Shown in pieces: positions 1,453 to 41,633 of a DNA stretch of 42,200 bases. The notes beneath the pieces were generated by a model, which was given only the letters and a program-made list of their open reading frames with translations, was not told the DNA's origin and ran no database searches. Source of the DNA: an uncultured Candidatus Saccharibacteria bacterium (GTDB lineage: Bacteria > Patescibacteriota > Minisyncoccia > Phycocordibacterales > UBA9973); NCBI GenBank assembly GCA_964474435.1, contig CAYYSI010000001.1, positions 1 to 42,200 of the forward strand, read 5' to 3'. The position numbers were made by a program, and so were the translations under genes. Numbering within the stretch: position 1 is the first letter of the stretch; the number at the start of each line of letters is the position of its first letter.

Positions 1453-1553
1453 AGGATAGTACTCCTTTATACTACCATATTTGCATACATGGTACAGACA
1501 GAGGTGCTATACTGTCTAAGTAATCACTCATATTAATAGTAAGGAATAAACTA

Positions 1554-1877: not shown

Positions 1878-1880
1878 GAG

Positions 1881-1924
1881 AAATAAAAAACACTCACTCA
1901 GAAAAAACTGAGTGTTTTTTATTT
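1881..1924. terminator. Bidirectional intrinsic terminator between convergent genes
   Basis: Perfect 16-bp inverted repeat aaataaaaaacactca / tgagtgttttttattt with A/T tracts on both sides; overlaps comF stop. Confidence 0.8.
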
Positions 1925-2566: not shown

Positions 2567-2601
2567 AGGAAATATCTAAATATGCTTTATACTACTACTA
2601 T

Positions 2602-3735: not shown

Positions 3736-3741
3736 GTAAAA

Positions 3742-6711: not shown

Positions 6712-6793
6712 ATTGAAAGTGGATTAATCCACTCTTTTCATTATTTTTCCTTGCACATATATAGAGAGTGCATGTATACTTTGTAGTAATTCC

Positions 6794-7438: not shown

Positions 7439-8007
7439 AGACATTTTTTTCACTACTACTTATAGCTACATCCCTCATTGTCTTTGTGACGGTTATCAGA
7501 CCGCGCTACCAAAACCTGCAAGTGACGCGCAAGGCAGTTGCCGTATCAAATGCAAATCTTGAAACCGCTGCAAAGCTTGCCGAATCTCGTGAGTCATTGA
7601 TCGCGACATACAACACTATTTCCAAAACTGATCTCGATAATGTCAGAACACTCTTGCCCGACAGTGTCGATAACATTCGCCTCATCATCCAGATCAACTC
7701 GCTCGCAACAAAAAATGGCCTTTCATTGCTCCGAAATGTGGATTACCAAACAGAGTCTCCTGATGGTTCACAGCCAACTCAGGCTCCCGAAGCAGCAAAC
7801 CGCCCATATGGTGAGTTTACGATTTCATTCCAGACGACAGGGCAGTATTCCAACTTCCTCGCCTTTGTCGCAGACCTCGAAAAGAATTTGCGCCTCGTGG
7901 ACGTGACCAAAGTCGAGTTTACGACCAACGAAGCTCCGACTGCACAAACACCGGCAAGCAGCCTCAGTTACAAGGTCAGCCTCAAGACGTATTGGCTTAA
8001 AAAATAA
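7435..8007 (+). CDS. pilO: Type IV pilus assembly protein PilO
   Basis: TM anchor, coiled coil, LLP motif, GQYSNFLAFVADLEKNLRLVDV; ATGA overlap with pilN. Confidence 0.85.
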   Translation: MKTFFSLLLIATSLIVFVTVIRPRYQNLQVTRKAVAVSNANLETAAKLAESRESLIATYNTISKTDLDNVRTLLPDSVDNIRLIIQINSLATKNGLSLLRNVDYQTESPDGSQPTQAPEAANRPYGEFTISFQTTGQYSNFLAFVADLEKNLRLVDVTKVEFTTNEAPTAQTPASSLSYKVSLKTYWLKK

Positions 8008-8009
8008 CT

Positions 8010-8675
8010 ATGAATAAGAAACTTAAAACAATTTTGATACTCGTAGTCGTCGTTGTGGTGATCGGCATTGCGGCAAGCTATTTCTTGCAGAACAAAAGTG
8101 CACCAAGTGCTCCGGTAACAAGCGACAACCCACTGAGCGCATCTTCTCGTGCAGCTGGTGTTGCATCGTCCACTGCTCCGCTTGCTCCAGCAACAGAGTT
8201 CTCAGCGTTGCTCTCGACTATTAAAAGCATTTCTATCGATACGTCACTGTTTACCAATGCATCGTATTTGAGCTTGCGAGATTTCCCAATCACACTCGGT
8301 ACCGAAATCATTGGTCGCCCAAACCCATTTGCACCGATCGGCTATGATGCAGCAAGTAGTACTACGACAACTGATACTCCTATCCAGTTTGAAACACTTC
8401 AGCCAGGCAAGGTCACGAGTACGACTGCAGAGTTTGGCGGACAAGGACTCCTGAGTAATACTGCACAATCAAGTGTCGTGTTTGAATACGGAACGAGTGA
8501 TCTCTTTGGTAGTGCAACACCCCCGGTATCTCTCGGTAAAAATGGCACTGCACTCTTTACTGCAAGTGGTCTCACACCTGCAACGATGTACTATGTTCGT
8601 GCCGTATTGGTGCAAGGGTCGAACACCACCGTGGGTAACACCATGACCTTTACGACGACTGCAAAAACACGATAA
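8010..8675 (+). CDS. Membrane-anchored protein in PilP position with C-terminal FN3-like domain
   Basis: TM helix, Ser/Ala/Pro linker, GRPNPFAP (PilP-like RxPF motif), then FN3-like FEYG...SGLTPATMYYVRAV. Confidence 0.7.
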   Translation: MNKKLKTILILVVVVVVIGIAASYFLQNKSAPSAPVTSDNPLSASSRAAGVASSTAPLAPATEFSALLSTIKSISIDTSLFTNASYLSLRDFPITLGTEIIGRPNPFAPIGYDAASSTTTTDTPIQFETLQPGKVTSTTAEFGGQGLLSNTAQSSVVFEYGTSDLFGSATPPVSLGKNGTALFTASGLTPATMYYVRAVLVQGSNTTVGNTMTFTTTAKTR

Positions 8676-10399
8676 TGTTTCTCGACTTCCTGCTTTCGCA
8701 GAACATCATAACGGAACTCCAGTACAACAAGGTGGCAACATCACTTGATACTGAATTTGCAGGCAATCTCACCAAGGCATTACTCTCCGTTGGTCTTTCC
8801 GAAGACGGCATGACGATGGCAAAGGGGACATTCTACAAGATCCCGTACCAAAAGATCAATAAAAAAGACGTGACATACGAAGTACTCAAGTATGTCGAAG
8901 AAGATGCCGCTCGTCATTACAAATTTGTGCCGATCGGATTCAATGACGGCGTGCTCTCGATCGGAGTCACCGAGCCCGAAAATATTGAGGCAATGAATGC
9001 GCTCCAGTTTATCTCGGTCAAACTTGAAGTACCGTTCAAAATCTTCCTTATATCGCACTCCGACTATCTCGAGATCCTCGAAAACTACAAGGCACTCACC
9101 AATGAAGTCGACAATGCAGTCGGAGAGCTCAATGATGAGCTTGAGCAAGCAAATGTTGCCGTCGGCAAAGGTGCAGAGGTCATCGAAAAAGTTGATGCTA
9201 CAAAGCAGGTCAAAATCGTTGAGGATGCACCAATCATCAAGATTGTGGCGGTCATTATCAACCACGCTGTCGAAGGGGGAGCATCTGACATCCACATCGA
9301 AAACAATGGTGAGTCGGTCAAGGTTCGCTATCGTGTCGATGGGACACTCCACACGACACTCGTACTCCCGCTCAACACATTTGACGGTATTATTGCGCGT
9401 ATCAAAATCCTCTCAAAACTTCGTCTCGACGAAAAGCGCAAACCACAAGACGGCTCGTTTGTGACCATGATCGACAAGCGCAAGATTGAGTTTCGCGTTT
9501 CGACATTCCCCGCATACTTTGGAGAAAAGGTCGTGATGCGTATTCTCGACTCTGATCACGGAGTGAAATCGATCGACGACCTCGACATGACACCCGAGCA
9601 CAAGAAAATTGTTCAGGATATTTTGAAGCGTCCATATGGACTCGTGCTTATCTCTGGTCCAACAGGATCTGGTAAATCAACGACACTCTACTCAATGCTC
9701 AACGCAGTGGATCGCGAAGGTTCAAATGTCGTCTCACTCGAAGATCCAGTTGAATATCAGATCCCAGGAGTGACACAGTCTCAGGTGATGCCAGAAATCG
9801 GTTACACGTTTGCAACAGGACTCAGGTCAATCCTCCGACAAGACCCAAACATCATCATGGTGGGAGAGATCCGCGACAAGGAAACTGCAGAGCTTGCGAT
9901 CCAGGCGGCTCTCACGGGTCACCTCGTATTCTCAACAATCCACACCAACACCTCGATCGGTATTGTGCCGCGACTTGTGGACATGGGTATTGATCCGTAT
10001 TTGATCGCGCCAACACTTATCCTCGCGATGGCGCAACGTCTCGTGCGCCGCGTGCATCCAAGTGCACGACACGAAGTACCTATCGATGCCGCAACCCAAG
10101 AAATGCTCGACAAAGAATTTGGAGATCTGGATCCCAAGTATCGAGATTTGCTCAATATCCCAAAGACTATGTATGAGGCAAAACCCTCATCAGAGGCACC
10201 CTCGATGACGCATGGGCGTATTGCAGTGTTTGAAATGTTTCCGCTCGACAAGGATATTCAACAAGTTATCTTGAAAAATCCTGTCGAACAAGAGATTTAC
10301 AAGGCATGTCGCACAAAAGGCATGATCACGCTTCGCGAAGACGCGCTCTTAAAGGCGCTCAAAGGAGATGTCCTCATGCAAGAGGTCTACGGGCTATAG
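8675..10399 (+). CDS. pilB: Type IV pilus extension ATPase PilB/GspE
   Basis: MshEN-like N-domain, ASDIHIE, Walker A GPTGSGKST, LEDPVEY, RQDPNIIMVGEIRD. Confidence 0.95.
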   Translation: MFLDFLLSQNIITELQYNKVATSLDTEFAGNLTKALLSVGLSEDGMTMAKGTFYKIPYQKINKKDVTYEVLKYVEEDAARHYKFVPIGFNDGVLSIGVTEPENIEAMNALQFISVKLEVPFKIFLISHSDYLEILENYKALTNEVDNAVGELNDELEQANVAVGKGAEVIEKVDATKQVKIVEDAPIIKIVAVIINHAVEGGASDIHIENNGESVKVRYRVDGTLHTTLVLPLNTFDGIIARIKILSKLRLDEKRKPQDGSFVTMIDKRKIEFRVSTFPAYFGEKVVMRILDSDHGVKSIDDLDMTPEHKKIVQDILKRPYGLVLISGPTGSGKSTTLYSMLNAVDREGSNVVSLEDPVEYQIPGVTQSQVMPEIGYTFATGLRSILRQDPNIIMVGEIRDKETAELAIQAALTGHLVFSTIHTNTSIGIVPRLVDMGIDPYLIAPTLILAMAQRLVRRVHPSARHEVPIDAATQEMLDKEFGDLDPKYRDLLNIPKTMYEAKPSSEAPSMTHGRIAVFEMFPLDKDIQQVILKNPVEQEIYKACRTKGMITLREDALLKALKGDVLMQEVYGL

Positions 10400-10435
10400 A
10401 CGAAAGGGAACAACTGGGAGTATACTGATACTACT

Positions 10436-10846
10436 ATGGATGCAACGACACCAAACACAGAAAAGCAGAAAAACATTTTGATCGTTGACGATGACTCATT
10501 CCTCCTCGACATGTACGCAATGCGATTTAGTCAGGCACATTTCAATGTCACCACCGCTATGAGTGCGTCAGACACACTGACCAAGCTTCGCGGAGGATTG
10601 AATCCCGATATCATGTTGCTCGACGTCGTCATGCCTGCAGTGGACGGATTTGAACTTTTGGAAACGATCAACAAAGAAGGCCTCGTACCAAAGGCAGTCA
10701 AGATCTATCTCTCAAACCTCGGGCAGGACCAAGACATCGAACGCGGAAAAAGTTTGGGAGCAGCAAGTTATATCGTCAAGGCAAACTCAACTCCCAGTGA
10801 AGTGGTCGCACATGTGCTCGAAGTAATGAAGGAAAAAGGAATATAA
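10436..10846 (+). CDS. Single-domain CheY-like response regulator
   Basis: ILIVDDD, LLDVVMP (phospho-Asp), LSN, YIVK motifs; no output domain. Confidence 0.92.
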   Translation: MDATTPNTEKQKNILIVDDDSFLLDMYAMRFSQAHFNVTTAMSASDTLTKLRGGLNPDIMLLDVVMPAVDGFELLETINKEGLVPKAVKIYLSNLGQDQDIERGKSLGAASYIVKANSTPSEVVAHVLEVMKEKGI

Positions 10847-10848
10847 GT

Positions 10849-11907
10849 ATGGAATATAAAAAAACATTCGAAGAACTTATCGACACCCTCATCCGAGAAG
10901 AAGGATCTGACCTTCACTTGGCGACGGGGCGATTCCCGGCAGTTCGCGTCAACGGCGAACTTATCTTTTTGATGAACCGTCCTGCGCTCACCCAGGACGA
11001 CATGATCGGATTTCTCCAGGCCATCCTCAGCCCTGAGCACTACAAACATTTCCAAGACATCCAAGAACTCGACTTTTCATACGAATACCAAGGCACGATC
11101 CGTCTGCGTGGCAATGTCTACGTCCAGCAAAGCAAATACGTCATGGTCTTGCGACTCATCCCGCATGTCAAAACGCTCCAGGAACTCAACCTGCCCACTA
11201 TTCTTGCAGATTTTGCACGACGCAAACAAGGATTCTTTCTCTGTGTGGGACCAGTGGGGCAAGGCAAGAGTGCAACACTCTCTGCTATGGTTGGCTTGAT
11301 CAATGAAGAGCGCGCAGCGCATATTTTGACGATCGAGGACCCTGTTGAATACGTGTATGAACAAAAAAAGGCAATCATTGACCAGCGTGAAGTTGGTATT
11401 GATACGGTAGATTTTGCCAGAGCACTGCACAGTGCATTTCGTGAAGACGTCAACGTCATGCTCATCGGAGAAATGCGCGACGCAGAGACGATCAGTGCTG
11501 CAGTCACTGCTGCAGAAACAGGACACTTGGTGCTCTCGACACTTCACACCAACAACGCATCCCAAACAGTGGATCGTATTATCGACTCATTCCCAGCAGC
11601 TCAGCAAGACCAGATCCGCATACAACTTGCATCATCGTTGATCGGTATTTTCTCCCAACGACTCGTGCCACGCATCGCCGGAGGTCGCGTGCCTGCATAT
11701 GAGCTCCTCATCAACAACAACGCCGTTGCAAATCTCATTCGCGAAAAGCGCACCCACGAGATCGACATGGTGATCGAGACGGGGTTTGAGCTCGGCATGA
11801 TCGACATGAACCGCTCATTGGTTGACCTCGTCCGCCAAGGAGAAATCACCGTTGAAAATGCGTACGCGTACTCTATTAATCCAAAAAATCTCGAACGATT
11901 ACTATAA
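10849..11907 (+). CDS. pilT: Type IV pilus retraction ATPase PilT
   Basis: SDLHL, Walker A GPVGQGKS, TIEDPVEY, GEMRD, AETGHLVLSTLHT, AVANLIRE (AIRNLIRE motif). Confidence 0.95.
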   Translation: MEYKKTFEELIDTLIREEGSDLHLATGRFPAVRVNGELIFLMNRPALTQDDMIGFLQAILSPEHYKHFQDIQELDFSYEYQGTIRLRGNVYVQQSKYVMVLRLIPHVKTLQELNLPTILADFARRKQGFFLCVGPVGQGKSATLSAMVGLINEERAAHILTIEDPVEYVYEQKKAIIDQREVGIDTVDFARALHSAFREDVNVMLIGEMRDAETISAAVTAAETGHLVLSTLHTNNASQTVDRIIDSFPAAQQDQIRIQLASSLIGIFSQRLVPRIAGGRVPAYELLINNNAVANLIREKRTHEIDMVIETGFELGMIDMNRSLVDLVRQGEITVENAYAYSINPKNLERLL

Positions 11908-11913
11908 CCTATT

Positions 11914-13122
11914 ATGAATTTCACCTACCAAGCACTCACTGACAAAGGAGAGAAACGCGACGGCATGATCGAAGCGGTCAATCGTGACCTTGCAGTTGCA
12001 GGTTTGCAGCGCCGCGGACTGATCGTAACCTCTATCAAAGATGAGAAAGAAGCAAAGAAATGGTTTGAGATGTCGATCTACGAAAAGATCCCGATGAAGC
12101 AGGTCGTCATTCTTTCGCGTCAGATCTCGACACTCTTTGAAGCACAAGTGTCAGCGCTCAAGGCATTCACACTCCTTGCAGAAAATAGTCAAAACAAACT
12201 CCTCGGCAGCAAACTCTCGCAAGTGGTTACTGATCTCCAAGGAGGTTCATCGATTGCAAACGCACTCGCAAAACACCCCGATGTCTTTTCTGACTTTTAT
12301 GTGAACATGGTCAAGGCTGGTGAAGAGTCTGGAAAGCTCACCCAAGTTTTCTCCTACATGGCGGACTACCTCGATCGTCAGTACGCACTTACATCCAAGA
12401 CCAAGCACGCACTCGTCTACCCAGCATTCGTTATTGGTATCTTCATCGCCGTCATGGTGCTCATGTTTACGGTCGTTGTGCCGAAACTCTCTGCGATCAT
12501 TACAGAGTCAGGCCAAGATGTGCCGTTTTATACCAAGATCGTCATGGCGATCAGTAGCTTCCTCGTCCACTACGGCATATTCCTTCTTATTGGAGTTGTT
12601 GTGTTTATCGCATACCTTATTCGACTTTCACGAACGAAACGTGGCAAACAAATCCTCGATGAAGCGCGCCTCGGCATCCCAGTGGTGGGCAACCTGTACC
12701 AAAAGCTCTATCTCGCACGTATTGCAGACAACATGGACACTATGCTCTCCTCTGGTATTCCGATCATTCGATCGATCGAGATCACTGCGCGCGTCGTAGG
12801 GAACAAACGCTACGAAACAGTCATGCTCGAAGCCATGGAGGCAGTGAAAAGTGGTAAGGCACTCTCTGCAGCACTCGCGCTCCATCCAACCGAGATCCCA
12901 AAGATCATGACACAGATCATCCTGGTTGGAGAAGAAACGGGAAGTATGGGATCAATTTTGAAAATGCTTGCGAAGTTTTACAACCGCGAAGTTGATGAAG
13001 CCGTCGATACTTTGGTTGGACTCATTGAACCGTTTATGATCATTTCCCTTGGTATTGGTGTTGGACTCCTCCTCGTATCAATCCTCGTACCGATCTACAA
13101 CATCGCAGGTGGTATTAGCTAA
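11914..13122 (+). CDS. pilC: Type IV pilus platform protein PilC/GspF
   Basis: Two GspF domains (AGEESGKL, VGEETGSM), ALVYP, LIEP motifs, three TM segments. Confidence 0.95.
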   Translation: MNFTYQALTDKGEKRDGMIEAVNRDLAVAGLQRRGLIVTSIKDEKEAKKWFEMSIYEKIPMKQVVILSRQISTLFEAQVSALKAFTLLAENSQNKLLGSKLSQVVTDLQGGSSIANALAKHPDVFSDFYVNMVKAGEESGKLTQVFSYMADYLDRQYALTSKTKHALVYPAFVIGIFIAVMVLMFTVVVPKLSAIITESGQDVPFYTKIVMAISSFLVHYGIFLLIGVVVFIAYLIRLSRTKRGKQILDEARLGIPVVGNLYQKLYLARIADNMDTMLSSGIPIIRSIEITARVVGNKRYETVMLEAMEAVKSGKALSAALALHPTEIPKIMTQIILVGEETGSMGSILKMLAKFYNREVDEAVDTLVGLIEPFMIISLGIGVGLLLVSILVPIYNIAGGIS

Positions 13123-13137
13123 ACAGTGGAAATCTGG

Positions 13138-13168
13138 TTGCGCACTCTATACACGAGCGTGATATACT
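13138..13168 (+). promoter_or_regulatory. Putative promoter of first pilin (extended -10)
   Basis: TGa-TATACT at 13160-13168; ttgcgc at 13138-13143 (spacer 19, so -35 uncertain). Confidence 0.5.
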
Positions 13169-13235
13169 CTATACATTACAAAGGGATTTGTAATAATCGA
13201 TTATTAAAAATTCAAAATATTAAGATTACTATAGT

Positions 13236-13718
13236 ATGAAAAAGAAATTACAAAGCGGTTTCACCCTCATCGAACTCTTGGTGGTGATCGCAATTATCGG
13301 GATTCTCGCGTCAGTGGTTCTCGCCTCACTCAACACTGCTCGTGCAAAGGGTGCTGATGCAGCTGTAAAAGCAAACCTTGCAAACGTTCGTCCTCAGGCA
13401 GAAATCTTTTACGACGGAACAGGTAATAGTACATATGGTACTGCAGCTGCCGCTGCCGCTGCAACATGTAGCGCATCGACATTCCTTGATGCAACTGCTC
13501 GTGCAGGTGTCGCAGCAGCAGTTACTGCTTCTGGAGGTAGTGCTTCTACTGATCAGCGTTGTGCAATTGGAGTCGGTGGTGCAAGTTGGGCTGCTTCAGT
13601 TCCTCTTAAGACAAACACTGCAACTGCTATCTGTGTTGATAGTAGTGGTCAAGCTAAAACAACAACTACGGCCACTCCAGCATTGGGAGGAGGCACAGCT
13701 GTGGCTATTTGTCCGTAA
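13236..13718 (+). CDS. Type IV pilin 1 (probable major pilin)
   Basis: G|FTLIELLVVIAIIGIL; C-terminal ICVDSSG...ICP cysteines; own upstream promoter and downstream terminator. Confidence 0.93.
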   Translation: MKKKLQSGFTLIELLVVIAIIGILASVVLASLNTARAKGADAAVKANLANVRPQAEIFYDGTGNSTYGTAAAAAAATCSASTFLDATARAGVAAAVTASGGSASTDQRCAIGVGGASWAASVPLKTNTATAICVDSSGQAKTTTTATPALGGGTAVAICP

Positions 13719-13735
13719 TCTTCTCAAGGTTACTG

Positions 13736-13775
13736 ACAACAAAAAAACCACTCAACAGAGTGGTTTTTTTGTTGT
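13736..13775. terminator. Intrinsic terminator after pilin 1
   Basis: Perfect 18-bp inverted repeat acaacaaaaaaaccactc-aaca-gagtggtttttttgttgt. Confidence 0.85.
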
Positions 13776-13786
13776 ATACTTTTCGT

Positions 13787-14290
13787 ATGAAAAAGAAATT
13801 ACAAGCAGGCTTTACGCTCATTGAATTATTGGTAGTTATCGCAATTATTGGGGTACTTGCGGCTGTAATACTTGCGTCACTTAATAGTGCTCGAAGCAAA
13901 GGAAAGGTTGCAACCGTAAAAGCTGATATGGCCAACGCTCGGACTCAAGCAGCTCTCTATGCTGATAGTAATACTGGCGTTGCAAATGATAGTGATGCAA
14001 ACGCTTTAACTAGTGGTTATGCCGGTGTCTGTGGCGCAGGCGTAAATGTAAAAGGTATTGCATCCTTTAAGACAGGGGCGGACGCAGTGGATGGGACATC
14101 ATCTATATGTAATGACTCAGTACTTGCGTGGGCATGGGCGATCCGTTTGGGATCAACGCCGTATACATACTGGTGTGCCGACTCCACAGGAGTTTCGCGC
14201 GGAGCAACGGCAAGTGGCACGTTGTACACCGGATCTTCTGGAAGTAGTACGACTGCACTTCCAACATCTCTTTCTACCTATTGTAATTAA
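13787..14290 (+). CDS. Type IV pilin 2
   Basis: Start reassigned to MKKKLQAG|FTLIE at 13787 (track start 13709 runs through the terminator); YWCADSTG and terminal YCN. Confidence 0.92.
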   Translation: MKKKLQAGFTLIELLVVIAIIGVLAAVILASLNSARSKGKVATVKADMANARTQAALYADSNTGVANDSDANALTSGYAGVCGAGVNVKGIASFKTGADAVDGTSSICNDSVLAWAWAIRLGSTPYTYWCADSTGVSRGATASGTLYTGSSGSSTTALPTSLSTYCN

Positions 14291-14298
14291 TATATTGT

Positions 14299-14823
14299 AT
14301 GAAAAACAAATCCAAAGGCTTCACCCTCATCGAACTTCTTGTTGTTATTGCCATTATCGGTATTCTCGCGTCAGTAGTGCTTGCATCGCTCAATAGTGCA
14401 CGTAATAAAAGCAAAGATGCGAAAATTGTCGCTCAACTCAAATCAATGATTCCGCAGGCGCAGCTGTATACAGGACAAGTCGAACAGGTGTATTGGGCAA
14501 CAGCTGCAACGGGGGTTCCCGAAGGAAGTGTAGGAGCAAATCTTTTTACAAATTCCACAGCTTCAACAAATAGTCTGTATCGGCTTGCAACTGGATTTCC
14601 ATCTGGAACCTTTATTTATTATTCAACAGAACCAAAAACACCTGCAAATGGAGGACGATGGGCAATTGCAGCAGCAACATCAAAAGGATCATATTGTGTG
14701 GACTACACAAATGCAGCAATAACCAAGACTGGCACATTTACTGGGGCAACAAAATTTACAGAATATCCAAATCTCGATTACGCACCATCAAATCCTACAA
14801 AACCCGCATATTTGTGCAACTAG
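14299..14823 (+). CDS. Type IV pilin 3
   Basis: MKNKSKG|FTLIELLVVIAIIG; YCVDYT and terminal LCN. Confidence 0.92.
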   Translation: MKNKSKGFTLIELLVVIAIIGILASVVLASLNSARNKSKDAKIVAQLKSMIPQAQLYTGQVEQVYWATAATGVPEGSVGANLFTNSTASTNSLYRLATGFPSGTFIYYSTEPKTPANGGRWAIAAATSKGSYCVDYTNAAITKTGTFTGATKFTEYPNLDYAPSNPTKPAYLCN

Positions 14824-14861
14824 TGGAAAAGTATTAAGCATACACATGCTATACTAAACAC

Positions 14862-15650
14862 ATGCTTTTATTGCCGCTTATTATTTTCGCATTCGGCTTA
14901 CTCATCGGATCTTTTTTAAACGTCGTTATCTTGCGTATCAACACGGGGCGATCCATTGTCATCGGGCGTTCCAAGTGCGCGCGCTGCAATCGTGAGCTCG
15001 CATGGTATGAGCTCGTCCCAGTCTTTTCATTCCTCGGTCTCCGCGGCAAATGTCGCACGTGCAAACAACCGATCTCATTTCAATACGCACTCGTTGAGCT
15101 CGCAACAGCAATCATCTTTGTCGTTGCATATACACAGATCGTCGTAGCGGGAGGTTTCACTGCCACAGCGATCATTTCATACATATTTACCCTGATCATC
15201 GCGAGTTTGTTGATGGTGATCACTATCTATGACCTCCGCCACAAGATCATTCCCGACATGGTTGTCTATCCATTTATTGTGCTCGCTATCGGATCAATCG
15301 TATGGCGTGCAGTGACAGTGCCATATTTCCATATATGGGGCGCATTGCTCGGGGGAACACTTGTGGCATTACCATTTTTCTTGCTCTGGTATTTCTCAAA
15401 AGGGCGACTCATGGGATTTGGCGATGTGAAGCTCATGCTTGGTATTGGGTGGCTCGTCGGACTCACTGCTGGCTTTGCTGTGCTCGTGCTCGGATTTTGG
15501 ATCGGAGGTATCGTCGGACTTTTCTTGCTTGCGCTCACACGACGCTATGGCATGAAAAGTCAGATACCGTTTGGACCCTTTTTAGTAGTTGCACTTGGCA
15601 TAGTCGCACTCTGGGGTGTTACAATTAGTTCACTCTTTCCACTATGGTAA
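14862..15650 (+). CDS. pilD: Prepilin peptidase PilD (A24)
   Basis: GSFLNVVILR, two CxxC (CARC, CRTC), IYDLRHKIIPD and GFGDVKL aspartate motifs, IPFGPFL. Confidence 0.95.
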   Translation: MLLLPLIIFAFGLLIGSFLNVVILRINTGRSIVIGRSKCARCNRELAWYELVPVFSFLGLRGKCRTCKQPISFQYALVELATAIIFVVAYTQIVVAGGFTATAIISYIFTLIIASLLMVITIYDLRHKIIPDMVVYPFIVLAIGSIVWRAVTVPYFHIWGALLGGTLVALPFFLLWYFSKGRLMGFGDVKLMLGIGWLVGLTAGFAVLVLGFWIGGIVGLFLLALTRRYGMKSQIPFGPFLVVALGIVALWGVTISSLFPLW

Positions 15651-16333
15651 AACACTCATTACAACAAGGTGTCACGATTATCGAAATGCTCGTCGTCGTT
15701 GCAATCATTGCAATGGTTTCAGGTGTGATTATTTTTAACTACTCGGACTTTAGTACCAACGTTTCTATTCGTAACCTTACCCAAGAAGTCGCGCTCAGTA
15801 TCCGCAAGGCGCAGACCTATGCGACCAGTGTGCGTCCAATCGAAGGACTCGTAGGAGTCAGTAGTCGTGAGTTCGCAGGGTATGGAGCATCATTTAGTGT
15901 TGCGCGTGATGTTGGGAGCGATCAGTATCTTGCGGATGCAAAGAAATTTATCTTGTTTGCAGATATACCGCTCGTATTTGGTGAAAGTCCCAATGGGGCA
16001 TATGATCAAGAGATCAACGGTGTGTGTGATGCGCCTTTGGCATCTATGGAGTGTATCGAAACATTTGGTATAAATACTGCTGATCGGATCGTTGGTATTT
16101 GTAGTGACGATGTTACACCGTATGACTCTGGATCAATGATTGACTGCTCAGACAAAGGGAGTGTTGATATTACATTCCTTCGCCCAAATCCTGATGCGCA
16201 TATCAGATATCACAATGAAGCCACTAATGAGACTATCGAAAACGCATCATATGCAAAGATTGTCTTTGAGTCTGCAAAAGGGCTTCGTCGATCAGTCACT
16301 GTCTGGAATACGGGGCAGATTAGTGTGCGATAA
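15644..16333 (+). CDS. Minor pilin (FimT/FimU/GspH-like)
   Basis: G|VTIIEMLVVV; C-terminal SVTVWNTGQISVR typical of the GspH-like class. Confidence 0.8.
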   Translation: MVKHSLQQGVTIIEMLVVVAIIAMVSGVIIFNYSDFSTNVSIRNLTQEVALSIRKAQTYATSVRPIEGLVGVSSREFAGYGASFSVARDVGSDQYLADAKKFILFADIPLVFGESPNGAYDQEINGVCDAPLASMECIETFGINTADRIVGICSDDVTPYDSGSMIDCSDKGSVDITFLRPNPDAHIRYHNEATNETIENASYAKIVFESAKGLRRSVTVWNTGQISVR

Positions 16334-16339
16334 TTATTT

Positions 16340-16960
16340 ATGATGAAATTTTCTCAACCACAATCACATACACAGGCAGGGTTCACACTTGTGGAGCTCA
16401 TGGTGTCGCTCTCACTTTTTATTATCGTCGTTCTCGCGCTCGTCGGCTCGCTGTACAATGTTAACGACGCATCACGCAAAGTCCAGGCAATGCGTACCGT
16501 CATGGACAACCTTAACTTTGCTGTTGAATCCATGAGTCGCACGATTCGTACTGGTGAAGACATCACGTGTAGTGAGTCTGGTATCGGCATATGTCCTATT
16601 GCTAGTATTACAAATGGGTCAAATCCGTACCTCTCAGTACGCAGTACGCTTGGAGAGAATGCGCGCATCGAATATCGATGGGTGCATGATGACCCTAGTC
16701 AGCCTGGCAGAGTCGAAAAGAAGCGCACTGAACTCAATGATGATGGTACACCAGTACTTGGTGCAAGTCCTACATGGGTCTCAATCACGTCTCCAGAGAT
16801 CAATGTTGAAAAGTTTAGTTTCTATGTCGCTGGTGTTGGCGACAATGACGGTGAACAACCAAATGTTATTATAAACATGCAAGGAGTGGCGAGTGCAGGT
16901 CGAGACAACGTCGCACCGTTTTCAATACAAACATTCCTCTCGCAGAGAGCACCTGAGTGA
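16340..16960 (+). CDS. Minor pilin (PilW/GspJ-like)
   Basis: G|FTLVELMVS; ESMSRTIRTG helix. Confidence 0.8.
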   Translation: MMKFSQPQSHTQAGFTLVELMVSLSLFIIVVLALVGSLYNVNDASRKVQAMRTVMDNLNFAVESMSRTIRTGEDITCSESGIGICPIASITNGSNPYLSVRSTLGENARIEYRWVHDDPSQPGRVEKKRTELNDDGTPVLGASPTWVSITSPEINVEKFSFYVAGVGDNDGEQPNVIINMQGVASAGRDNVAPFSIQTFLSQRAPE

Positions 16961-17546
16961 TCTATATGATGAAAAAATACACCCAACAATCAGGCTTCAC
17001 CCTCATCGAGACATTGATCGCGATTCTCATTCTTTCGCTCGCAATCGGCGCGTTGCTCACACTCACTGCAGGAGGATTCTTTGGTATTCGCTATGCGAAA
17101 AATGATATCGTCGCAAGCAACCTACTGCAGGAGTCGCTCGAGTACGTGCGCAATAGTCGCGACAATGCTGCGCAATCAGATAGTGGGACGAGCTGGGGCA
17201 TCTGGCAGTCTCGGTATGCAGCATGTGCCTCTGACGATGGTTGTATGATCAACCCGTATGCAGATACTGATGGAGGCAAAGTACAACTATGTCCTGGCAA
17301 GTGTACTCAGTTGAAATATTTTCCTGACGCAGGCTTTTATGGGTACAATGACACTGATATATTTAACACGACAATGGATCAAGGGTTTGCCACATCGTTT
17401 GTTCGTACGGTGCGCTTTACCGATATTGCTCCGACAGGTATCAATGTCGATCCACAACTCCTTGTCACCGCGACAATGGAATGGATGAATGGGACAAACA
17501 AGAAATCAACGACGCAGTCGATAGTACTCACGAGATGGAATTTACA

Positions 17547-17550
<4 letters not shown>
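16957..17550 (+). CDS. Minor pilin (PilV/GspI-like)
   Basis: G|FTLIETLIAI; ASNLLQESLEYVRN; alternative ATG at 16966. Confidence 0.8.
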
Positions 17551-22889: not shown

Positions 22890-23005
22890 GCAAACCAAAC
22901 TGCTTTAGTTTGCGTCGGGATCTTGAACGACGGAAGCATGCTGATAGCTGCTGAGTCGGTGCCCAGACCCATTCAGAATGAATGGAGTCGAGGGAAAGTC
23001 CCGCC
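22890..23005. other. Structured intergenic element with tRNA T-arm-like ends (candidate MITE/REP-like element or ncRNA)
   Basis: Hairpins gcaaaccaaa/tttagtttgc and ccattca-gaa-tgaatgg; antisense T-arm-like gtcgggatcttgaac (22914-22928); exact 10-nt copy aagtcccgcc (22996-23005) of tRNA-Asp 22814-22823. Confidence 0.5.
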
Positions 23006-23027
23006 TGTAACCTGGTATACTTTATTT

Positions 23028-23435
23028 ATGAATATAAAAAATCTAGTCAGAAATGAAGAAAACGAGATACTAAAAGCTGGAGGTGTTGTTATCGACGCAG
23101 GAAAAGTCCTTTTAGTAACTGGTATACAAGGAACTATTTGGAGTTTTCCGAAAGGGCATGTAGAAAAGGGTGAGACTATAGAAGAAACTGCAATACGTGA
23201 AGTTCGAGAGGAAACTGGATATGATGTTGAAATACTGAAACGTTTGACCGATGTAACGTATACAAACAAAGGAACAGGTGACCCAATACGCGTGGCTATG
23301 TTTAAAATGAAACCAGTGAAAGATACGGGAACAAAAGAATCAGATACTCAAACTAAATGGTTTCCTATAGAAGAAGCAAAAGAATTTTTAGCTTCTCATA
23401 AACCAGCCTCATTACTTGCTGAAATGACCGAGTAA
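23028..23435 (+). CDS. Nudix hydrolase (Ap4A-hydrolase-like box)
   Basis: FPKGHVEKGETIEETAIREVREETG; start reassigned to ATG 23028, 6 nt after TGG-TATACT. Confidence 0.9.
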   Translation: MNIKNLVRNEENEILKAGGVVIDAGKVLLVTGIQGTIWSFPKGHVEKGETIEETAIREVREETGYDVEILKRLTDVTYTNKGTGDPIRVAMFKMKPVKDTGTKESDTQTKWFPIEEAKEFLASHKPASLLAEMTE

Positions 23436-26042: not shown

Positions 26043-26906
26043 ATGAAGCCACTCATTTCAATTATTATTCCGACGTATAATCGCGCCTATATTCTTCCTC
26101 GTGCCATCGGAAGTGTATTGAATCAAACGTACTCTAATTGGGAATTAATTATTGTCGATGATGGATCAACTGATACCACGAAGGAATTGATTGAGAGCTA
26201 TGATGATGCTCGCATAATATATGTCTATCAAGAAAATAAAGGTCCTTCTCCTGCTCGAAATATGGGTTTACGAAATACGCGAGGTGAATGGATTGCGTAT
26301 TTGGACAGTGATGATGAATTGGTCCCTGAATATTTACAAACAACACAGGAATGGATTAATGACAATCCTAATACTCTATACCTTTCTACAAAATATAAAA
26401 GAATGATGGAAATATTTCAAAACGGAGAGATGGTTGATTCATATGAAGATAGTGTAAATGTCCCGGAACAGCTTACTGTTCGTGATATTTTTCTACGCAC
26501 CTATTATTTCTCAATGGGTGGCTTTATGCATTCAAGGAAAATTTTTGAAGAAGGAATTGTATGGGACGAACAACTTGTTCAATCAGAAGATTGGGATTTC
26601 TTTATGCAGATAGGTGAAAAGTATCCAGATAATTTCATTTATATACCCATTGTGTTATGGACATATCATCGCAGTGTCGGTACTGATGGAGTATCTTCTA
26701 ATACTACCCACTTACAAATGGCCAATTCATTTGAATATATTTATCAAAAACATAAAAATGATCAGCAATTAATAGGCCAAACTTGGTATCCTGAAAGAGT
26801 AGAAAAGTATAAAAAGTTTTACCAAGAAGCTCCAGATGGAAAGATCGAAGATCGCCACTGGAAAGATGGGGTTGTACAAAAGAAGAAACGAGTAGGCGAG
26901 CAATAA
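26043..26906 (+). CDS. Glycosyltransferase family 2 (GT-A)
   Basis: ISIIIPTYNR, IIVDDGSTD, AYLDSDD, EDWDF; start reassigned to 26043 because the track ORF overlaps the tRNA; visibly AT-rich. Confidence 0.92.
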   Translation: MKPLISIIIPTYNRAYILPRAIGSVLNQTYSNWELIIVDDGSTDTTKELIESYDDARIIYVYQENKGPSPARNMGLRNTRGEWIAYLDSDDELVPEYLQTTQEWINDNPNTLYLSTKYKRMMEIFQNGEMVDSYEDSVNVPEQLTVRDIFLRTYYFSMGGFMHSRKIFEEGIVWDEQLVQSEDWDFFMQIGEKYPDNFIYIPIVLWTYHRSVGTDGVSSNTTHLQMANSFEYIYQKHKNDQQLIGQTWYPERVEKYKKFYQEAPDGKIEDRHWKDGVVQKKKRVGEQ

Positions 26907-26909
26907 AAA

Positions 26910-26929
26910 AGATCATCTTTCGATGATCT
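26910..26929 (-). terminator. Probable terminator for the PurZ-like gene
   Basis: On the minus strand agatcatc-gaaa-gatgatct followed by a T tract. Confidence 0.6.
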
Positions 26930-26940
26930 CTGTAGCTAAT

Positions 26941-28032
26941 TTACTGAGCAACCTTTCGGAACATACTACTTCTCGTCCAATCGCGATCGATAGTGGTGAG
27001 TGGTCCTGTTTTGACGAATCCTACTGGAATACCTGTTCGGCTCTCAACCAGTTCAATAAAGTCTTGTACTTTTGAACTCAATCTTTCTTTTTCGTATACC
27101 GAATAATCAAGATGGTCGAGAAATGTCAGTGCAATTTCAGTTGGGCAATTTGCATCACACGCAGCTTTTAATCCTTCCCAACTAAATGTTGCAACTCGAC
27201 GAACAGTTTTCGTCACTGATGTTTTTTCAGTGATGTCATGTGGTGCACCAGAAAATTTCCGTACATAGTTCCAGGTGACCTCTTTTGAGTCTGCATCAAA
27301 TGGTCCACTGTTGCCACCAACTCTGATGGGGAACGTTCGAGCAACGCCGATCACGTCCATCGCATAGTGATGTCCCGGCAATCCAGCTTCCGCAAGGAGT
27401 GCACTTACGGTCGTATCCCTACTTGTTGTGTACGGAAACTTCCCATGGATAACGCTGAGTCCGAAACCTTGCGTTCCTTCTAGTACGACGATGCCACCTT
27501 CGCGAAGTTCTTTGTGAAGGAGCTTTGTTGTATTAGAAAGATACGGTTTCAGCTGTGGAATGTCTTTTGCAAATATGCACTCTGAATCCCGCAGTACTCT
27601 GTGTGATGCATTCATCCCGATACCGAGACTGCTTTTCCCGGATGTGCTTGCAATACGTTCAGCAAGTCCGGTTAAGGACTCGAGTTCGATTTGGTGCTGT
27701 GTGATGACTTGTGCATGCGCATCAATATAGAGCCTGCGTTTGATCGGCATAATTTTTTCTATCATTTCAATCTCTTTGAGCAATACTTTGAGACTGATCT
27801 GTGCTCCAAGGCCAATGACGAGTTTTACGTATGGATTGATCCATCCGCAGGGAAGTTGTCGCATGATATATGGGACTCCTTCATAAAAGACCGTGTGTCC
27901 TGCATTTGCAGCTCCAGTCCGAACGCATACTGATGCAATAGTGCAGTTATGGGCAGCTATCGCTCCTTTGCTCTCTGAGCCATATTGCATACCAACGACA
28001 GCAATAATTTTGCCTGATGTATCTTGTTTCAT
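26941..28032 (-). CDS. Adenylosuccinate-synthetase-superfamily protein with PurZ/PurZ0 (2-amino-deoxyadenylosuccinate synthase) signature
   Basis: 363 aa (short archaeal/phage-type length); GMQYGSESKG, NAGH, EGTQG, PYTTSRD, RTFPIRVGGNSGP, TSVTKTVRR, LTFLD, KTGP. Superfamily is certain; PurZ-type function is inferred from motif substitutions. Confidence 0.8.
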   Translation of the reverse strand: MKQDTSGKIIAVVGMQYGSESKGAIAAHNCTIASVCVRTGAANAGHTVFYEGVPYIMRQLPCGWINPYVKLVIGLGAQISLKVLLKEIEMIEKIMPIKRRLYIDAHAQVITQHQIELESLTGLAERIASTSGKSSLGIGMNASHRVLRDSECIFAKDIPQLKPYLSNTTKLLHKELREGGIVVLEGTQGFGLSVIHGKFPYTTSRDTTVSALLAEAGLPGHHYAMDVIGVARTFPIRVGGNSGPFDADSKEVTWNYVRKFSGAPHDITEKTSVTKTVRRVATFSWEGLKAACDANCPTEIALTFLDHLDYSVYEKERLSSKVQDFIELVESRTGIPVGFVKTGPLTTIDRDWTRSSMFRKVAQ

Positions 28033-28168
28033 ATAGATTTTTTTAAGGTTTCCTTAAACCTACTACAAAATCCCTACGAAGCAAGCCTTTGCCTTTCTCT
28101 CTTTTTATGCTATAAATAGTGCCTTATTGTCGCCCGAAAAGGGCCTTTATTTTATCAAGAATACATAT

Positions 28169-29974
28169 ATGGAAATCCGAAACATTGCAATTATTGCCCA
28201 CGTTGACCACGGCAAAACAACCCTCACCGACAAGATGCTCGCATTTTGCGGTATTGTGCTGGACGGTGCATCAATGGACTCAAACGCGATCGAACAAGAA
28301 CGCGGTATTACGATCTATGCCAAAAATACAGCAGTCATGTACAAAGGTACCAAGATCAACATTGTGGATACTCCAGGTCACGCAGACTTTGGATCCGAAG
28401 TTGAGCGTGTGCTTCGATCTATCGACTCAGTGCTCCTCATTGTCGATGCCCAAGAAGGTCCTATGCCACAAACTCGCTTCGTCTTGAAAAAATCACTCGA
28501 ACTTGGGCTCAAACCTATCGTTGTCATCAACAAGATCGACAAGCCAGGATCTGATTGTGCAGGTACACACGATGCAGTATTCGAACTCTTTATGGAGCTT
28601 GGGGCAACTGACGAACAGCTCGACTTCACCACTGTCTACGCCATCGGACGTGATGGTGTTGCAATGCGCAATGAAAAAGATGAACGAAAGGATCTCGAAC
28701 CACTTTTCGAAACAATTCTTGAAAAAGTCCCACTCGCACTCAACGACACAACCAAGCAGTTCCGTATGCAGGCATTCAACCTTGCGTATGACAACTTCCT
28801 TGGACGACTTGCAGCAGGTCGCGTGTACGAAGGTGTTGCAAAGGCAGGCGACACCGTGTTTATCCGCAGTGGTGACGGTGCAGCTCGTACTGCCAAGATC
28901 GTCAAACTCTTTACATTCATGGGAATGAAGCGCGAAGAAGTATCTGAAGCAGTGGCAGGTGACATTGTTATGATCGCTGGTATCCCGGACATTTTCATCG
29001 GAGAAACCATCAGTACAAACAAAGAAGCAGAACTTCTTCCAGCGATCACGATCGACGAACCAACGATCGTCTTGGATTTCTTGGTCAACAACTCTCCATT
29101 TGCCGGCAAGGAAGGGAAGTTTGTGACATCTCGCCAGATCCGTGAACGCCTCGAGCGCGAGCTTGAAACAAACGTCGGACTCAAAGTGAACTTTGATGCA
29201 AATCCAGATCGCATTGCCGAAGGCTTCACTGTCTACGGACGAGGCGAAATGCACATTGCAGTCTTGCTCGAAAACATGCGCCGCGAAGGATATGAAATCC
29301 AGGTCTCACAACCACAAGTTATTATCAAAGAAGTTGATGGGGTAAAGAGTGAACCGTTCGAAGAAGTCACGATTGATGCACCTGCAGATTTCCAAGGTGT
29401 CATCATCGAAAAGCTCGGCATGCGCGGCTTTATCATGGGTGACATGAATTTGAAAAATAATACCGTGCGTATGGTATTTACCGGACCTACTCGTGGACTG
29501 CTCGGCTACCGCAACCAGTTCTTGGTGGATACCAAAGGCGAAGGGATCATGAGTGCACGTGTGCTCGGCTTCCAGAAATATGCAGGCGAGATCACTCGTC
29601 GTCAGGTTGGCTCTATGGTCAGTATGGAAAATGGAAAGGCATTGGCATTTGCACTCTGGGGACTTCAGGATCGCGGTACACTCTACATCTCTCCTCAGAC
29701 CGAGGTGTATGAAGGTATGGTGATCGGAAATACTAGTAAGGGTGAAGAAATGAAAGTGAACCCAACGAAAGGAAAGCAGCTCACCAACATGCGTGCATCT
29801 GGTACTGACGAAGCAGTGACGATTATCCCGCCATGGACGATGACGATCGAACGCGGACTCGAAGTGATGGTAGATGACGAATTCCTCGAAGTCACCCCCC
29901 TCTCAGTCCGACTTCGCAAGCAATATTTGAATGATGCTGAGCGAACGAAGGCGAAGCGACCTAAGAATCAGTAA
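28169..29974 (+). CDS. typA: Translational GTPase TypA/BipA
   Basis: [55 protein letters not shown]; start reassigned to 28169. Confidence 0.97.
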
Positions 29975-36828: not shown

Positions 36829-37320
36829 ATGTATAACGAAGAAAAGAAGAATCTTATTGTTAAAGATTCTCGAAATGGGAAAGGTATATTTGGCAAAAAA
36901 GATTTTGAAATAGACGACATTATATTTCAAGTCACAGGGAAGCTCATAGCAGGTGACGAAGATGATGATATTGATGACGAAACGCGCGACAACACGTATC
37001 GATACAATACAGATACATATATCAGCCCCAAAGGAAGAATAGGTGATATGCTCAACCACTCCTGCAATCCAAATGCAAAAGTTACTAAAGAAGGTGACAG
37101 GCTTTTAATTCGTGCGATTAAAAACATTATTATAGGCAAAGAAATTACTATTGATTACTCGACTATTATTGCCGCTGACGATATCTGGGTAATGGAGTGT
37201 AATTGTGGGAGCACAAAATGTCGGGGAAAGATTGGGAAATTTAAATTGCTACCTATAGCCATAAAGAATAAATATATTACTGAGAATATAGTTCCGGAGT
37301 ATATAGTACAGATAAGCTAG
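36829..37320 (+). CDS. SET-domain protein lysine methyltransferase with post-SET
   Basis: GKGIF, MLNHSCNPN, EITIDY, post-SET CNCGSTKCRG. Confidence 0.92.
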   Translation: MYNEEKKNLIVKDSRNGKGIFGKKDFEIDDIIFQVTGKLIAGDEDDDIDDETRDNTYRYNTDTYISPKGRIGDMLNHSCNPNAKVTKEGDRLLIRAIKNIIIGKEITIDYSTIIAADDIWVMECNCGSTKCRGKIGKFKLLPIAIKNKYITENIVPEYIVQIS

Positions 37321-40823: not shown

Positions 40824-41633
40824 ATGAATAGTGCGCAAAAGGCATTTGTCCAAACAGTCAAAGGTCATTACAAAAAGCAGGGCAGACACGAGCTCCCATG
40901 GCGCCTGACGACTGATGCATACAGTATTGCGGTGTCAGAGATCATGCTGCAGCAGACACAAGTCGATCGTGTCATACCTAAATACACTGCATTCCTACAG
41001 AAATTCCCGACAGTACAGAAGCTCGCCAAAGCTCCACTCTCAGAAGTACTCGGTATGTGGAGCGGGCTTGGGTACAACAGACGTGCGAAGTTCTTGCATC
41101 AAATGGCACAAGCTGTAGTGAATGATTATAAAGGAAAGTTTCCGACACAGTACGATGATCTCAAGAAGCTTCCCGGCATCGGTCCATATACCGCGGGCGC
41201 AATATCTGCATTTGCATTCAACCAAGCTGTGCCGATCATAGAGACCAATATCCGTACTGTCTATCTCCATCATTTTTTCAAACATAAATCAGATATCTCT
41301 GATGCTGCGCTACACAAAATAATTGAGAAAACACTCGATACCAAAAACCCGCGCGTTTGGTACTGGGCACTCATGGACTACGGCTCACATTTGAAATCCA
41401 CTGGTATTAAAAATAATGCTAAAAGCAAGCACTATACCAAACAATCAAAGTTTGAAGGATCCAAACGCCAAATCCGCGGCACAATCATGCGAGAAGTATT
41501 AAAAGGTCCGACAACAGCGCAACACATGCTAAGAATAATTGATCGCACCAAAGAAGATATTCAAAAAGTATTTGATGATTTGGTGAGAGAAGGATTTGTG
41601 AAGAAGGAGAAAGGGAAGTATAAAATACTTTAA
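40824..41633 (+). CDS. mutY: MutY-like HhH-GPD adenine glycosylase lacking Fe-S motif and C-terminal domain
   Basis: LPWR, SEIMLQQTQV, WSGLGYNRRA, HhH LPGIGPYTAGAI, ALMDYG. Confidence 0.85.
   Translation: MNSAQKAFVQTVKGHYKKQGRHELPWRLTTDAYSIAVSEIMLQQTQVDRVIPKYTAFLQKFPTVQKLAKAPLSEVLGMWSGLGYNRRAKFLHQMAQAVVNDYKGKFPTQYDDLKKLPGIGPYTAGAISAFAFNQAVPIIETNIRTVYLHHFFKHKSDISDAALHKIIEKTLDTKNPRVWYWALMDYGSHLKSTGIKNNAKSKHYTKQSKFEGSKRQIRGTIMREVLKGPTTAQHMLRIIDRTKEDIQKVFDDLVREGFVKKEKGKYKIL

Follow-up and report, generated by a model that had tools for sequence, protein, structure and literature searches.

A Ser-type member of the PurZ/PurZ0 branch of adenylosuccinate-synthetase-fold proteins, encoded on a Patescibacteria chromosome

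The phage enzymes PurZ and PurZ0 share the fold of adenylosuccinate synthetase (PurA) and act on 2′-deoxyguanosine monophosphate (dGMP) on the route to deoxynucleotides of 2-aminoadenine (Z). Phages with Z in their DNA rely on the PurB of the host and carry no PurB-like gene of their own. The serine of the PurZ of cyanophage S-2L adjoins the dGMP 2-amino group, Arg303 in PurA makes contact with O2′ of inosine monophosphate (IMP), and an insertion in PurZ moves a conserved Val towards C2′ of the substrate, disfavouring ribonucleotides (PMC8342488). Genuine PurA proteins retain Asp13 in about 99% of cases, and phages pair PurZ0 with DutZ (PMC12884076); natural DNA containing Z, like the key enzyme for making it, has been stated to be known from phages only (PMC13128860). 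Here we describe P0001, a 363-amino-acid protein of the adenylosuccinate-synthetase fold encoded by a minus-strand open reading frame at 26941–28032 of a 42,200-nucleotide stretch of DNA, hereafter the window, from an uncultured Candidatus Saccharibacteria bacterium (contig CAYYSI010000001.1). P0001 is intact and under selection, has Ser at the catalytic Asp position (Ser-type) and a GTP pocket, belongs to a clade specific to the candidate phyla radiation (CPR) and is encoded in a non-phage setting. On the reading that we favour, and to which we give about an even chance, P0001 is a working enzyme of the Ser-type (PurZ/PurZ0) branch that is inherited with the chromosome and falls in a clade specific to CPR/Patescibacteria, and its sequence suggests that it would use GTP to ligate aspartate to dGMP.

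The gene was assigned to the family by a Pfam match (PF00709, Adenylsucc_synt, 4e-49), an AlphaFold2 (AF2) model and a Foldseek search. We aligned P0001 with E. coli PurA, with the PurZ of S-2L, of VP5 (phiVC8-like) and of SH-Ab 15497, with the PurZ0 of Wayne, Ghobes and Hiyaa and the PurZ0-like protein of Microbacterium phage Zanella, and with P. horikoshii PurA and seven other archaeal PurA taken from annotated records. Ser19, Thr276, Val277 and Asp306 of P0001 are equivalent to Asp13, Arg303, Arg304 and Asp333 of E. coli PurA, and P0001 has the PurZ state at all positions that separate PurZ/PurZ0 from PurA. In E. coli numbering, Asp13 is replaced by Ser, Thr271 by Ile and Gly298 by Thr, Gly302-Arg303-Arg304 of PurA is Lys-Thr-Val, and a two-residue insertion follows RVG (GN-SGP).

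Starting from the N terminus, the P-loop G14-MQYGSESKG-23 (27964–27993, minus strand, as for all motifs below; in context VVGMQYGS19ESKG) places Ser19 at the position of the catalytic Asp13 of PurA, with TCA as its codon (27976–27978). The IGST...GIG loop for the nucleotide 5′-phosphate carries S131-G-K-S134 (27631–27642), a four-residue insertion specific to the CPR clade in which S131 is invariant; a longer 255–267 loop is the other feature peculiar to this clade in the alignment. R237-VGGNSGP-244 (27301–27324) comprises the RV motif and the GN insertion common to PurZ and PurZ0, and the aspartate loop T271-SVTKTVRR-279 (27196–27222) ends in R278 and R279, the equivalents of Arg305 and Arg306. 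Both features that select for deoxyribose are present, namely the loss of the 2′-OH-binding Arg303 and the insertion at the RV motif. Judged by Asp13 and Arg303, P0001 fails as a PurA (Ser19, Thr276); judged by the other residues, Lys16, His41, Gln224, Arg143, Thr301, Arg305 and Asp333, it is conserved throughout, and the Arg306 equivalent is retained as well. An earlier reading of the window from its letters alone (the sequence-only reading) had quoted GMQYGS19ESKG, RTFPIRVGGNSGP, TSVTKT276VRR, LTFLD306 and KTGP from a protein of 363 residues, and the length and all five motifs, at the residues given, were recovered on re-reading. Its quotations from S-2L PurZ (QYGSTGKG, TVTKLPRR), and the joint loss of Arg303 and presence of Ser at Asp13, likewise hold in the alignment with the PurA, PurZ and PurZ0 references.

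The phosphoryl-donor pocket, by its motifs, is of the GTP type found in PurA and PurZ0. L302-TFLD-306 (27115–27129) retains the guanine-recognising Asp (E. coli Asp333), and K341-TGP-344 (27001–27012) is the same GTP-pocket motif as in the GTP-ligated P. horikoshii PurA (KTGP), whereas ATP-using PurZ read LNF(A/C)(N/Q), with N or Q at the Asp333 position; NF in place of TKLD, which the sequence-only reading had given for these enzymes, is borne out. The same reading had called P0001 GTP-dependent and PurZ0-like. Because the guanine-reading Asp and KTGP are kept, this was correct for the motifs and the GTP-type pocket stands, but membership of the PurZ0 clade does not, as P0001 falls in a separate CPR clade. 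The donor of PurZ is ATP or dATP (PMC8342488, bioRxiv 10.1101/2025.10.22.683976). The text of PMC12884076 has PurZ0 and PurZ preferring ATP and GTP ‘respectively’, the reverse of the other two papers; this is probably a slip in the text, as both papers and the motifs disagree with it.

P0001 is no one-off. A search of 5.8 billion protein clusters gave 120 best relatives that are 47–72% identical to P0001 (BLASTP), and all the organisms named among them are Patescibacteria (Paceibacterota, Pacebacteria, Tagabacteria, Saccharimonadales and ‘Patescibacteria group’); at 90% identity the CPR orthologues make up more than 100 clusters, that of P0001 among them. The P-loop pattern Q-x-G-S-E-x-K-G, and hence the Ser, is found in 110 of the 110 full-length relatives. 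Across 56 CPR orthologues with a mean column identity of 53%, 53 columns are invariant, every catalytic position among them, and T274, R278 and R279 of the aspartate loop are conserved. The invariant columns, together with the Ser in every full-length relative, are the sequence signature of purifying selection on the CPR clade. We also read the nearest 150 clusters (50% identity) from a word-index-free search of 1.84 billion cluster representatives. The P-loop residue is Ser in 128 of these representatives, Gly in 3 and Asp in 1, and the remaining 18, truncated or variant sequences, did not match the P-loop pattern; because of these 128, the prevalence of Ser near P0001 is not an effect of how sequences were picked. 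The sole Asp-bearing near representative (P0253) was considered as an outgroup and dropped, being degenerate (NAEHR, TDSGKIER).

Nor is Ser19 a sequencing error, because the identical P0001 protein is encoded by independent Logan assemblies of three runs and contigs of four wastewater/metagenome runs from two studies have zero differing letters over 26800–28200. Wastewater samples contain the genome at about 40x. The Ser codon thus survives the resequencing check that the sequence-only reading had proposed, with no GAT or GAC at 27976–27978. Three metatranscriptome runs of one study matched only through fragments of conserved GTPases and tRNAs that belong to other organisms, and no Nanopore runs containing the window were found.

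The main tree (IQ-TREE, LG+C20+F+G4 with posterior mean site frequencies, 91 rows) gathers all 82 Ser-type proteins into one clade with 100/100 support on a stem of 0.77. The PurA of Thermococcales, Archaeoglobales and Methanococcales and E. coli PurA lie outside it, and the underlying alignment has Ser in all 82 Ser-type rows and Asp in all Asp-type archaeal PurA rows. Among the Ser-type proteins, the CPR sequences are monophyletic (100/98); their clade joins a clade from the DPANN archaea (Woesearchaeota and Nanoarchaeota, 100/100), the phage PurZ (S-2L, SH-Ab 15497 and, in place of phiVC8, VP5) and two IMG/VR sequences with 95/81 support. A different subclade (98/87), which includes many IMG/VR sequences, contains the PurZ0 references, themselves monophyletic (100/100), and a 108-row quick tree gave the same picture. 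In an approximately unbiased (AU) test, the topology with the CPR clade basal to all other Ser-type proteins was 24.3 log-likelihood units worse (p = 0.084); in either position, the aligned sequences give the CPR clade the derived active-site states of the Ser-type stem. These sequence comparisons place P0001 firmly among the Ser-type proteins and outside PurZ0. The sequence-only reading had held that the enzyme is not a PurA and had named clustering inside ordinary archaeal PurA as the outcome that would speak against it; motifs and tree group P0001 with Ser-type PurZ/PurZ0 across the 100/100 branch, outside archaeal PurA.

Viruses offer no close match to the CPR clade: of 468 IMG/VR relatives, the nearest is 46% identical to P0001 and the others at most 43%, and 213 GenBank phage matches are 25–36% identical. 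Flavobacterium phage MaF61 (168 kb; L015:874-2217) encodes a 447-amino-acid ‘adenylosuccinate synthetase’ with GSSGKG and TLTKLPRR, which in the quick tree has a very long branch and falls among the phage PurZ. The DPANN clade, which retains Arg at the Arg303 position (TVTGR-x-RR), is represented by standalone Ser-type enzymes at six loci (L035, L041, L050, L059, L062 and L096), and is probably the ‘archaeal PurZ-related’ type of the literature.

The locus itself is a cellular chromosome. Annotated with Pfam over its full length, the window holds a type IV pilus cluster, ligA, gatA, a NUDIX gene, typA, RF2 and ftsEX, in addition to a D-Ala-D-Ala carboxypeptidase-like (dacA-like) gene, a DEAD-box helicase, family 2 and family 4 glycosyltransferases (GT2, GT4), a methyltransferase and a SET-domain protein; there are six tRNAs, including tRNA-Thr. 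The same annotation found no purB, HD/MazG hydrolase, DNA polymerase or phage structural gene, in agreement with the sequence-only reading, which had listed purB, datZ, mazZ, DNA polymerase and structural phage genes as missing. Among these housekeeping genes, the P0001 gene is monocistronic and has its own terminator: a terminator-like hairpin with a 10-bp stem and a T-run (26908–26931, minus strand) comes straight after the TAA stop and sits between the gene and a GT2 glycosyltransferase gene that converges on it. On the other side, a divergent intergenic region of 94 bp (28033–28126) separates the gene from typA, with AAGGA about 18 nt 5′ of the P0001 ATG; no sigma-70-like promoter was called in this region. 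The housekeeping neighbours (typA, tRNA-Thr) and the private terminator had both been noted from the letters alone, and the hairpin and the annotation agree. The GC content dips slightly at 26–28 kb (0.41–0.43, against 0.45 overall). A prophage origin was considered and rejected, given viral contigs at most 46% identical (IMG/VR) and a window without phage genes.

At about 20 CPR loci the PurZ-like gene is always single and among cellular genes, with different neighbours each time, and synteny around it is lost even between CPR relatives that are 60% identical. No neighbour recurs beyond one sublineage in these loci, and linkage to dutZ, dmtZ or DNA polymerase I was found neither in the window nor in the roughly 20 loci. 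With E. coli PurB as the query, tblastn searches of 2.59 Mb of loci and subsequently of 0.62 Mb gave no match in CPR loci, their matches being limited to three others (L033, from a Loki archaeon, L054 and L159). The one recurrent neighbour occurs in a Tagabacteria-like sublineage (L025, L180, L181/L182), where a CYTH/CyaB-like gene, whose product scores above the TIGR00318 cut-off, is next on the same strand (L180:8001-10264, L181:8001-10092, L025:3225-5857), followed either by a gene for an AAA_28 kinase resembling NadR or by a truncated open reading frame resembling xanthine phosphoribosyltransferase. These neighbours are a weak hint of a role in purine-nucleotide metabolism and leave the substrate undecided.

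In the mechanism that we propose, GTP would phosphorylate O6 of a 2-amino-6-oxopurine deoxynucleotide (dGMP), L-aspartate would then displace the phosphate to give N6-succino-2-amino-2′-deoxyadenylate, and adenylosuccinate lyase would convert this product to the Z deoxynucleotide dZMP. P0001 would then be a constitutive deoxypurine salvage or interconversion enzyme of a nucleotide-scavenging cell rather than part of a phage-style kit for genome replacement; the look of constitutive salvage comes from the standalone gene, its own terminator and the lack of an adjacent sensor, dATPase or special polymerase. The product might be partly incorporated into DNA, be converted further or serve to balance pools.

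Several observations weigh against dGMP ligation by P0001. In the family models the protein falls in between, under the curated cut-offs of PurA and PurZ alike: it scores 207.9 bits against the PurZ ‘exception’ model NF038379 (cut-off 300), 250.9 bits against the archaeal-type PurA equivalog NF003295 (cut-off 368) and 181.8 bits against TIGR00184 purA (cut-off 395.55). The phage PurZ-type family PHROG 1211 does match it (5e-65), yet a search of PDB sequences has P. horikoshii PurA on top at 178 bits, ahead of phiVC8 PurZ (119 bits), PurZ0 7VF6 (113) and S-2L PurZ (88). The AF2 model, built with 56 orthologues (pLDDT 94.3, pTM 0.92), likewise finds a PurA first in Foldseek, 5K7X (TM 0.86/0.92, rmsd 1.8 Å), followed by the PurZ0 7VF6 (TM 0.86/0.85) and the PurZ 6FKO (TM 0.81/0.85); the modelled fold confirms the family and does not tell the PurA subfamily from PurZ0 and PurZ. 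The place of the CPR clade within the Ser-type radiation is not firm, the basal position being unrejected by the AU test, and the position of Arg303 is variable within the clade, with Arg in 3 of 17 sampled sequences. The window holds no accessory gene of Z phages (DatZ, MazZ, DutZ, DmtZ, DpoZ) near P0001, and the CYTH protein with a NadR-like kinase or xanthine-phosphoribosyltransferase-like fragment could equally fit ribonucleotide salvage. The dGMP activity of the CPR clade is itself inferred from sequence, and dZMP has no obvious cellular use.

Much of this evidence would suit a PurA variant that joins aspartate to IMP or dIMP as the cell's working enzyme for AMP or dAMP synthesis, an explanation we hold to be possible, though doubtful. 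Ser19 or a residue of the 131–134 insertion would then compensate for the lost Asp13, and CPR and DPANN cells, with PurB, would turn salvaged hypoxanthine nucleotides into adenine nucleotides. That the relatives are annotated as adenylosuccinate synthetase wherever a source gives a name, that archaeal PurA is the best match in sequence and fold, and that the residues bearing the chemistry are all conserved bar Asp13 would all follow, as would a housekeeping-like monocistronic gene in cellular contexts and the xanthine-phosphoribosyltransferase-like fragment downstream in one CPR lineage; PurZ, moreover, runs the 6-phosphorylation chemistry without Asp13. Such an enzyme would nevertheless have Ser in 110 of 110 relatives at a position nearly invariant in genuine PurA (Asp13, about 99%; PMC12884076), and it would have given up the 2′-OH-binding Arg303 and gained the PurZ-type insertion. 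It also scores under the PurA equivalog cut-offs, and its clade lies within a Ser-type radiation whose sole characterised members use dGMP.

The clade-specific insertions near the nucleotide site (131–134, with its invariant S131, and the 255–267 loop) raise a further prospect, which we regard as unlikely: that P0001 is a PurZ-fold ligase with an undescribed substrate or role. It might take GMP or XMP to ribo-Z or isoguanine-type nucleotides, or make a signal, a cofactor precursor or a mark of self DNA in place of a bulk DNA precursor. The variable residue at the Arg303 position, the Arg retained there by the sister DPANN clade, the CyaB-like CYTH protein and NadR-like kinase that adjoin the gene in one lineage and the failure to find Z-pathway partners nearby are consistent with such a role. 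The conserved aspartate-loop residues shared with PurZ (T274, R278, R279) argue the other way, no positive pointer to another substrate appears in the sequence, and the most parsimonious expectation is the activity known from characterised relatives, which for P0001 would be the ligation of aspartate to dGMP.

Ser-type genes are not confined to CPR and DPANN. Scanning 185,579 species genomes with the pattern Q[YFW]GSE[GA]KG gave at least 600 matches, at least 584 of them confirmed; among the matches listed, the other carriers include many Dehalococcoidia, Binatia, Acidobacteriota, Nitrospira and Bacteroidota, as well as Myxococcota, Actinomycetota, Thermoplasmata and a Loki archaeon. Two kinds of gene module recur outside CPR. 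Type I (examples from loci L027–L096 are L087:7838-12977, L077:7916-12546 and L029:9995-12700) starts with an RNase_H_2+DUF429 protein, in some cases accompanied by an AAA_18 kinase, and continues with the Ser-type enzyme, a dCTP-deaminase-like protein (PF22769) and either a 264-amino-acid unknown protein or a deoxynucleoside kinase; by analogy, it has the look of a module for nucleotide pools or for defence that has yet to be described. Type II has as its core a kinase::Ser-type fusion of about 545 amino acids followed by DUF7002 (L090:7791-11661, L080:8025-11671, L049:9425-11725, L057:9377-11732). It occurs in Thermoplasmata and in the cultured Dyadobacter psychrotolerans AR-3-6, Parasediminibacterium sp. 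JCM 36343 and Cellulomonas hominis CS1, and is experimentally tractable because these cultured carriers exist; the two isolates from Bacteroidota (L090, L080) also have an IrrE/M78+Macro protein ahead of the fusion.

The Promethearchaeota metagenome-assembled genome Loki_b31 has a full-looking deoxypurine cluster (L033:8341-14114) of a 543-amino-acid kinase-containing protein, a Ser-type enzyme, a DCD-like protein, a deoxynucleoside kinase and a PurB-like lyase that is 27% identical to E. coli PurB (E = 9e-32). The pairing of a Ser-type enzyme with a dUTPase/Dcd-fold protein parallels, by analogy, that of PurZ0 with DutZ in phages, and these non-CPR cellular neighbours lend indirect support to the suggestion that enzymes of the Ser type work with PurB and have deoxynucleotides as their substrates.

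The same modules bear on whether P0001 could be an anti-phage or abortive device, in which Z nucleotides would poison the dNTP pool upon infection. They carry a dCTP-deaminase-like protein and a kinase domain resembling that of a defence dCTPase, in addition to IrrE/M78+Macro and RNase H-like proteins. The module partners, however, occur at none of 10 CPR loci, nor at the further CPR loci compared, PADLOC has no match for P0001, and the gene has housekeeping flanks and no adjacent sensor or regulator; we consider a defensive role for P0001 highly improbable. PADLOC 2.0 does not contain the non-CPR Ser-type modules, and a literature search found no paper tying adenylosuccinate synthetase to defence systems.

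Elsewhere in the window, a NUDIX hydrolase gene (22923–23435, plus strand) lies 3.5 kb from the P0001 gene. Its best matches, all sub-threshold, are MutT-type 8-oxo-(d)GTP and (d)NTP diphosphatases, and by analogy with MazZ it could in principle supply dGMP from dGTP; the NUDIX gene is not kept beside the PurZ-like gene in other CPR loci. The type IV pilus/competence-type cluster spans 664–17550 and encodes PilM, PilO, PilB, PilT-like and PilC proteins, at least seven N_methyl pseudopilins, a prepilin peptidase, a response regulator and a 989-amino-acid surface protein with FN3 and peptidoglycan-binding domains. The bacterial SET-domain protein (36829–37320, plus strand) is encoded directly after tRNA-Gln, and an HhH-GPD glycosylase with a C-terminal TrmB-like helix–turn–helix domain is encoded at 40824–41633 (plus strand).

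If the substrate predicted from the sequence of P0001 is right, Z-type purine chemistry may extend beyond viruses, and the finding bears on how nucleotide-auxotrophic, ultra-small cells balance their purine pools. It is a long shot that CPR, and in parallel DPANN, make Z deoxynucleotides with a vertically maintained PurZ-type enzyme and place some Z in their own DNA. Were this so, it would be the first Z-base pathway in cells, and Z could mark self DNA against nucleases that DNA-scavenging epibionts use on imported DNA. The making of Z nucleotides by cells would change the range in which a ‘fifth base’ is expected and the way in which CPR genomes are sequenced and analysed. If instead a Ser-type site supports AMP or dAMP synthesis, the prediction of PurZ from sequence changes, and with it the standing of more than 2000 viruses called ‘Z-genome’ by homology. 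Our literature text search found no paper naming both PurZ and Patescibacteria.

Among the known systems, P0001 shares a set of motifs with PurZ0, the GTP-dependent N6-succino-2-amino-2′-deoxyadenylate synthase of actinophages (Gordonia phage Archimedes, PDB 7VF6; Wayne, Ghobes and Hiyaa). Both have a QxGSE(G/A)KG P-loop with Ser for Asp13, the GNSGP insertion after RVG, an aspartate loop of the TVT-x-x-V-RR type without Arg303 and Arg304, LT(M/F)LD with the guanine-reading Asp and a short, archaeal-type length. As opposed to the phage-borne PurZ0, the P0001 gene is chromosomal and has no DutZ, DmtZ or DNA polymerase I neighbours, and the protein is only about 28–34% identical, lies in another Ser-type subclade, has the CPR-specific insertions 131–134 and 255–267 and reads KTGP in the guanine pocket where PurZ0 reads T(S/G)P. 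The ATP/dATP-dependent PurZ (Vibrio phage phiVC8, PDB 6FM1/6FKO; cyanophage S-2L, 7ODX; Acinetobacter phage SH-Ab 15497) is the nearest characterised branch to the CPR clade, in the arrangement CPR + (DPANN + PurZ) (95/81). It shares with P0001 the Ser for Asp13, the insertion after RVG and a loop of the TVTK..RR type, but combines GSTGKG with LNF(A/C)(N/Q), the ATP type, whereas P0001 combines GSESKG with LTFLD, the GTP type; PurZ genes are linked to datZ and mazZ, a linkage without parallel at the P0001 locus.

The short archaeal PurA (P. horikoshii PH0438, PDB 5K7X/2D7U; NF003295) is the best sequence and fold match of P0001 and resembles it in length class and in the KTGP and T-x-LD GTP pocket. 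Unlike P0001, it has Asp13, Thr271, Gly298 and G-R-R-R-R and no GN insertion, and it is split from the P0001 clade by the 100/100 branch of length 0.77. A further comparison is with four archaeal sequences described as ‘PurZ-related’, in which the catalytic position is Ser or Gly (Tong et al. 2023, relayed by PMC12884076). As far as that account goes, they are cellular and non-phage, like P0001, and are placed basal to PurZ and PurZ0; they are four in number and archaeal, whereas the P0001 clade is bacterial (CPR) and comprises more than 100 clusters at 90% identity.

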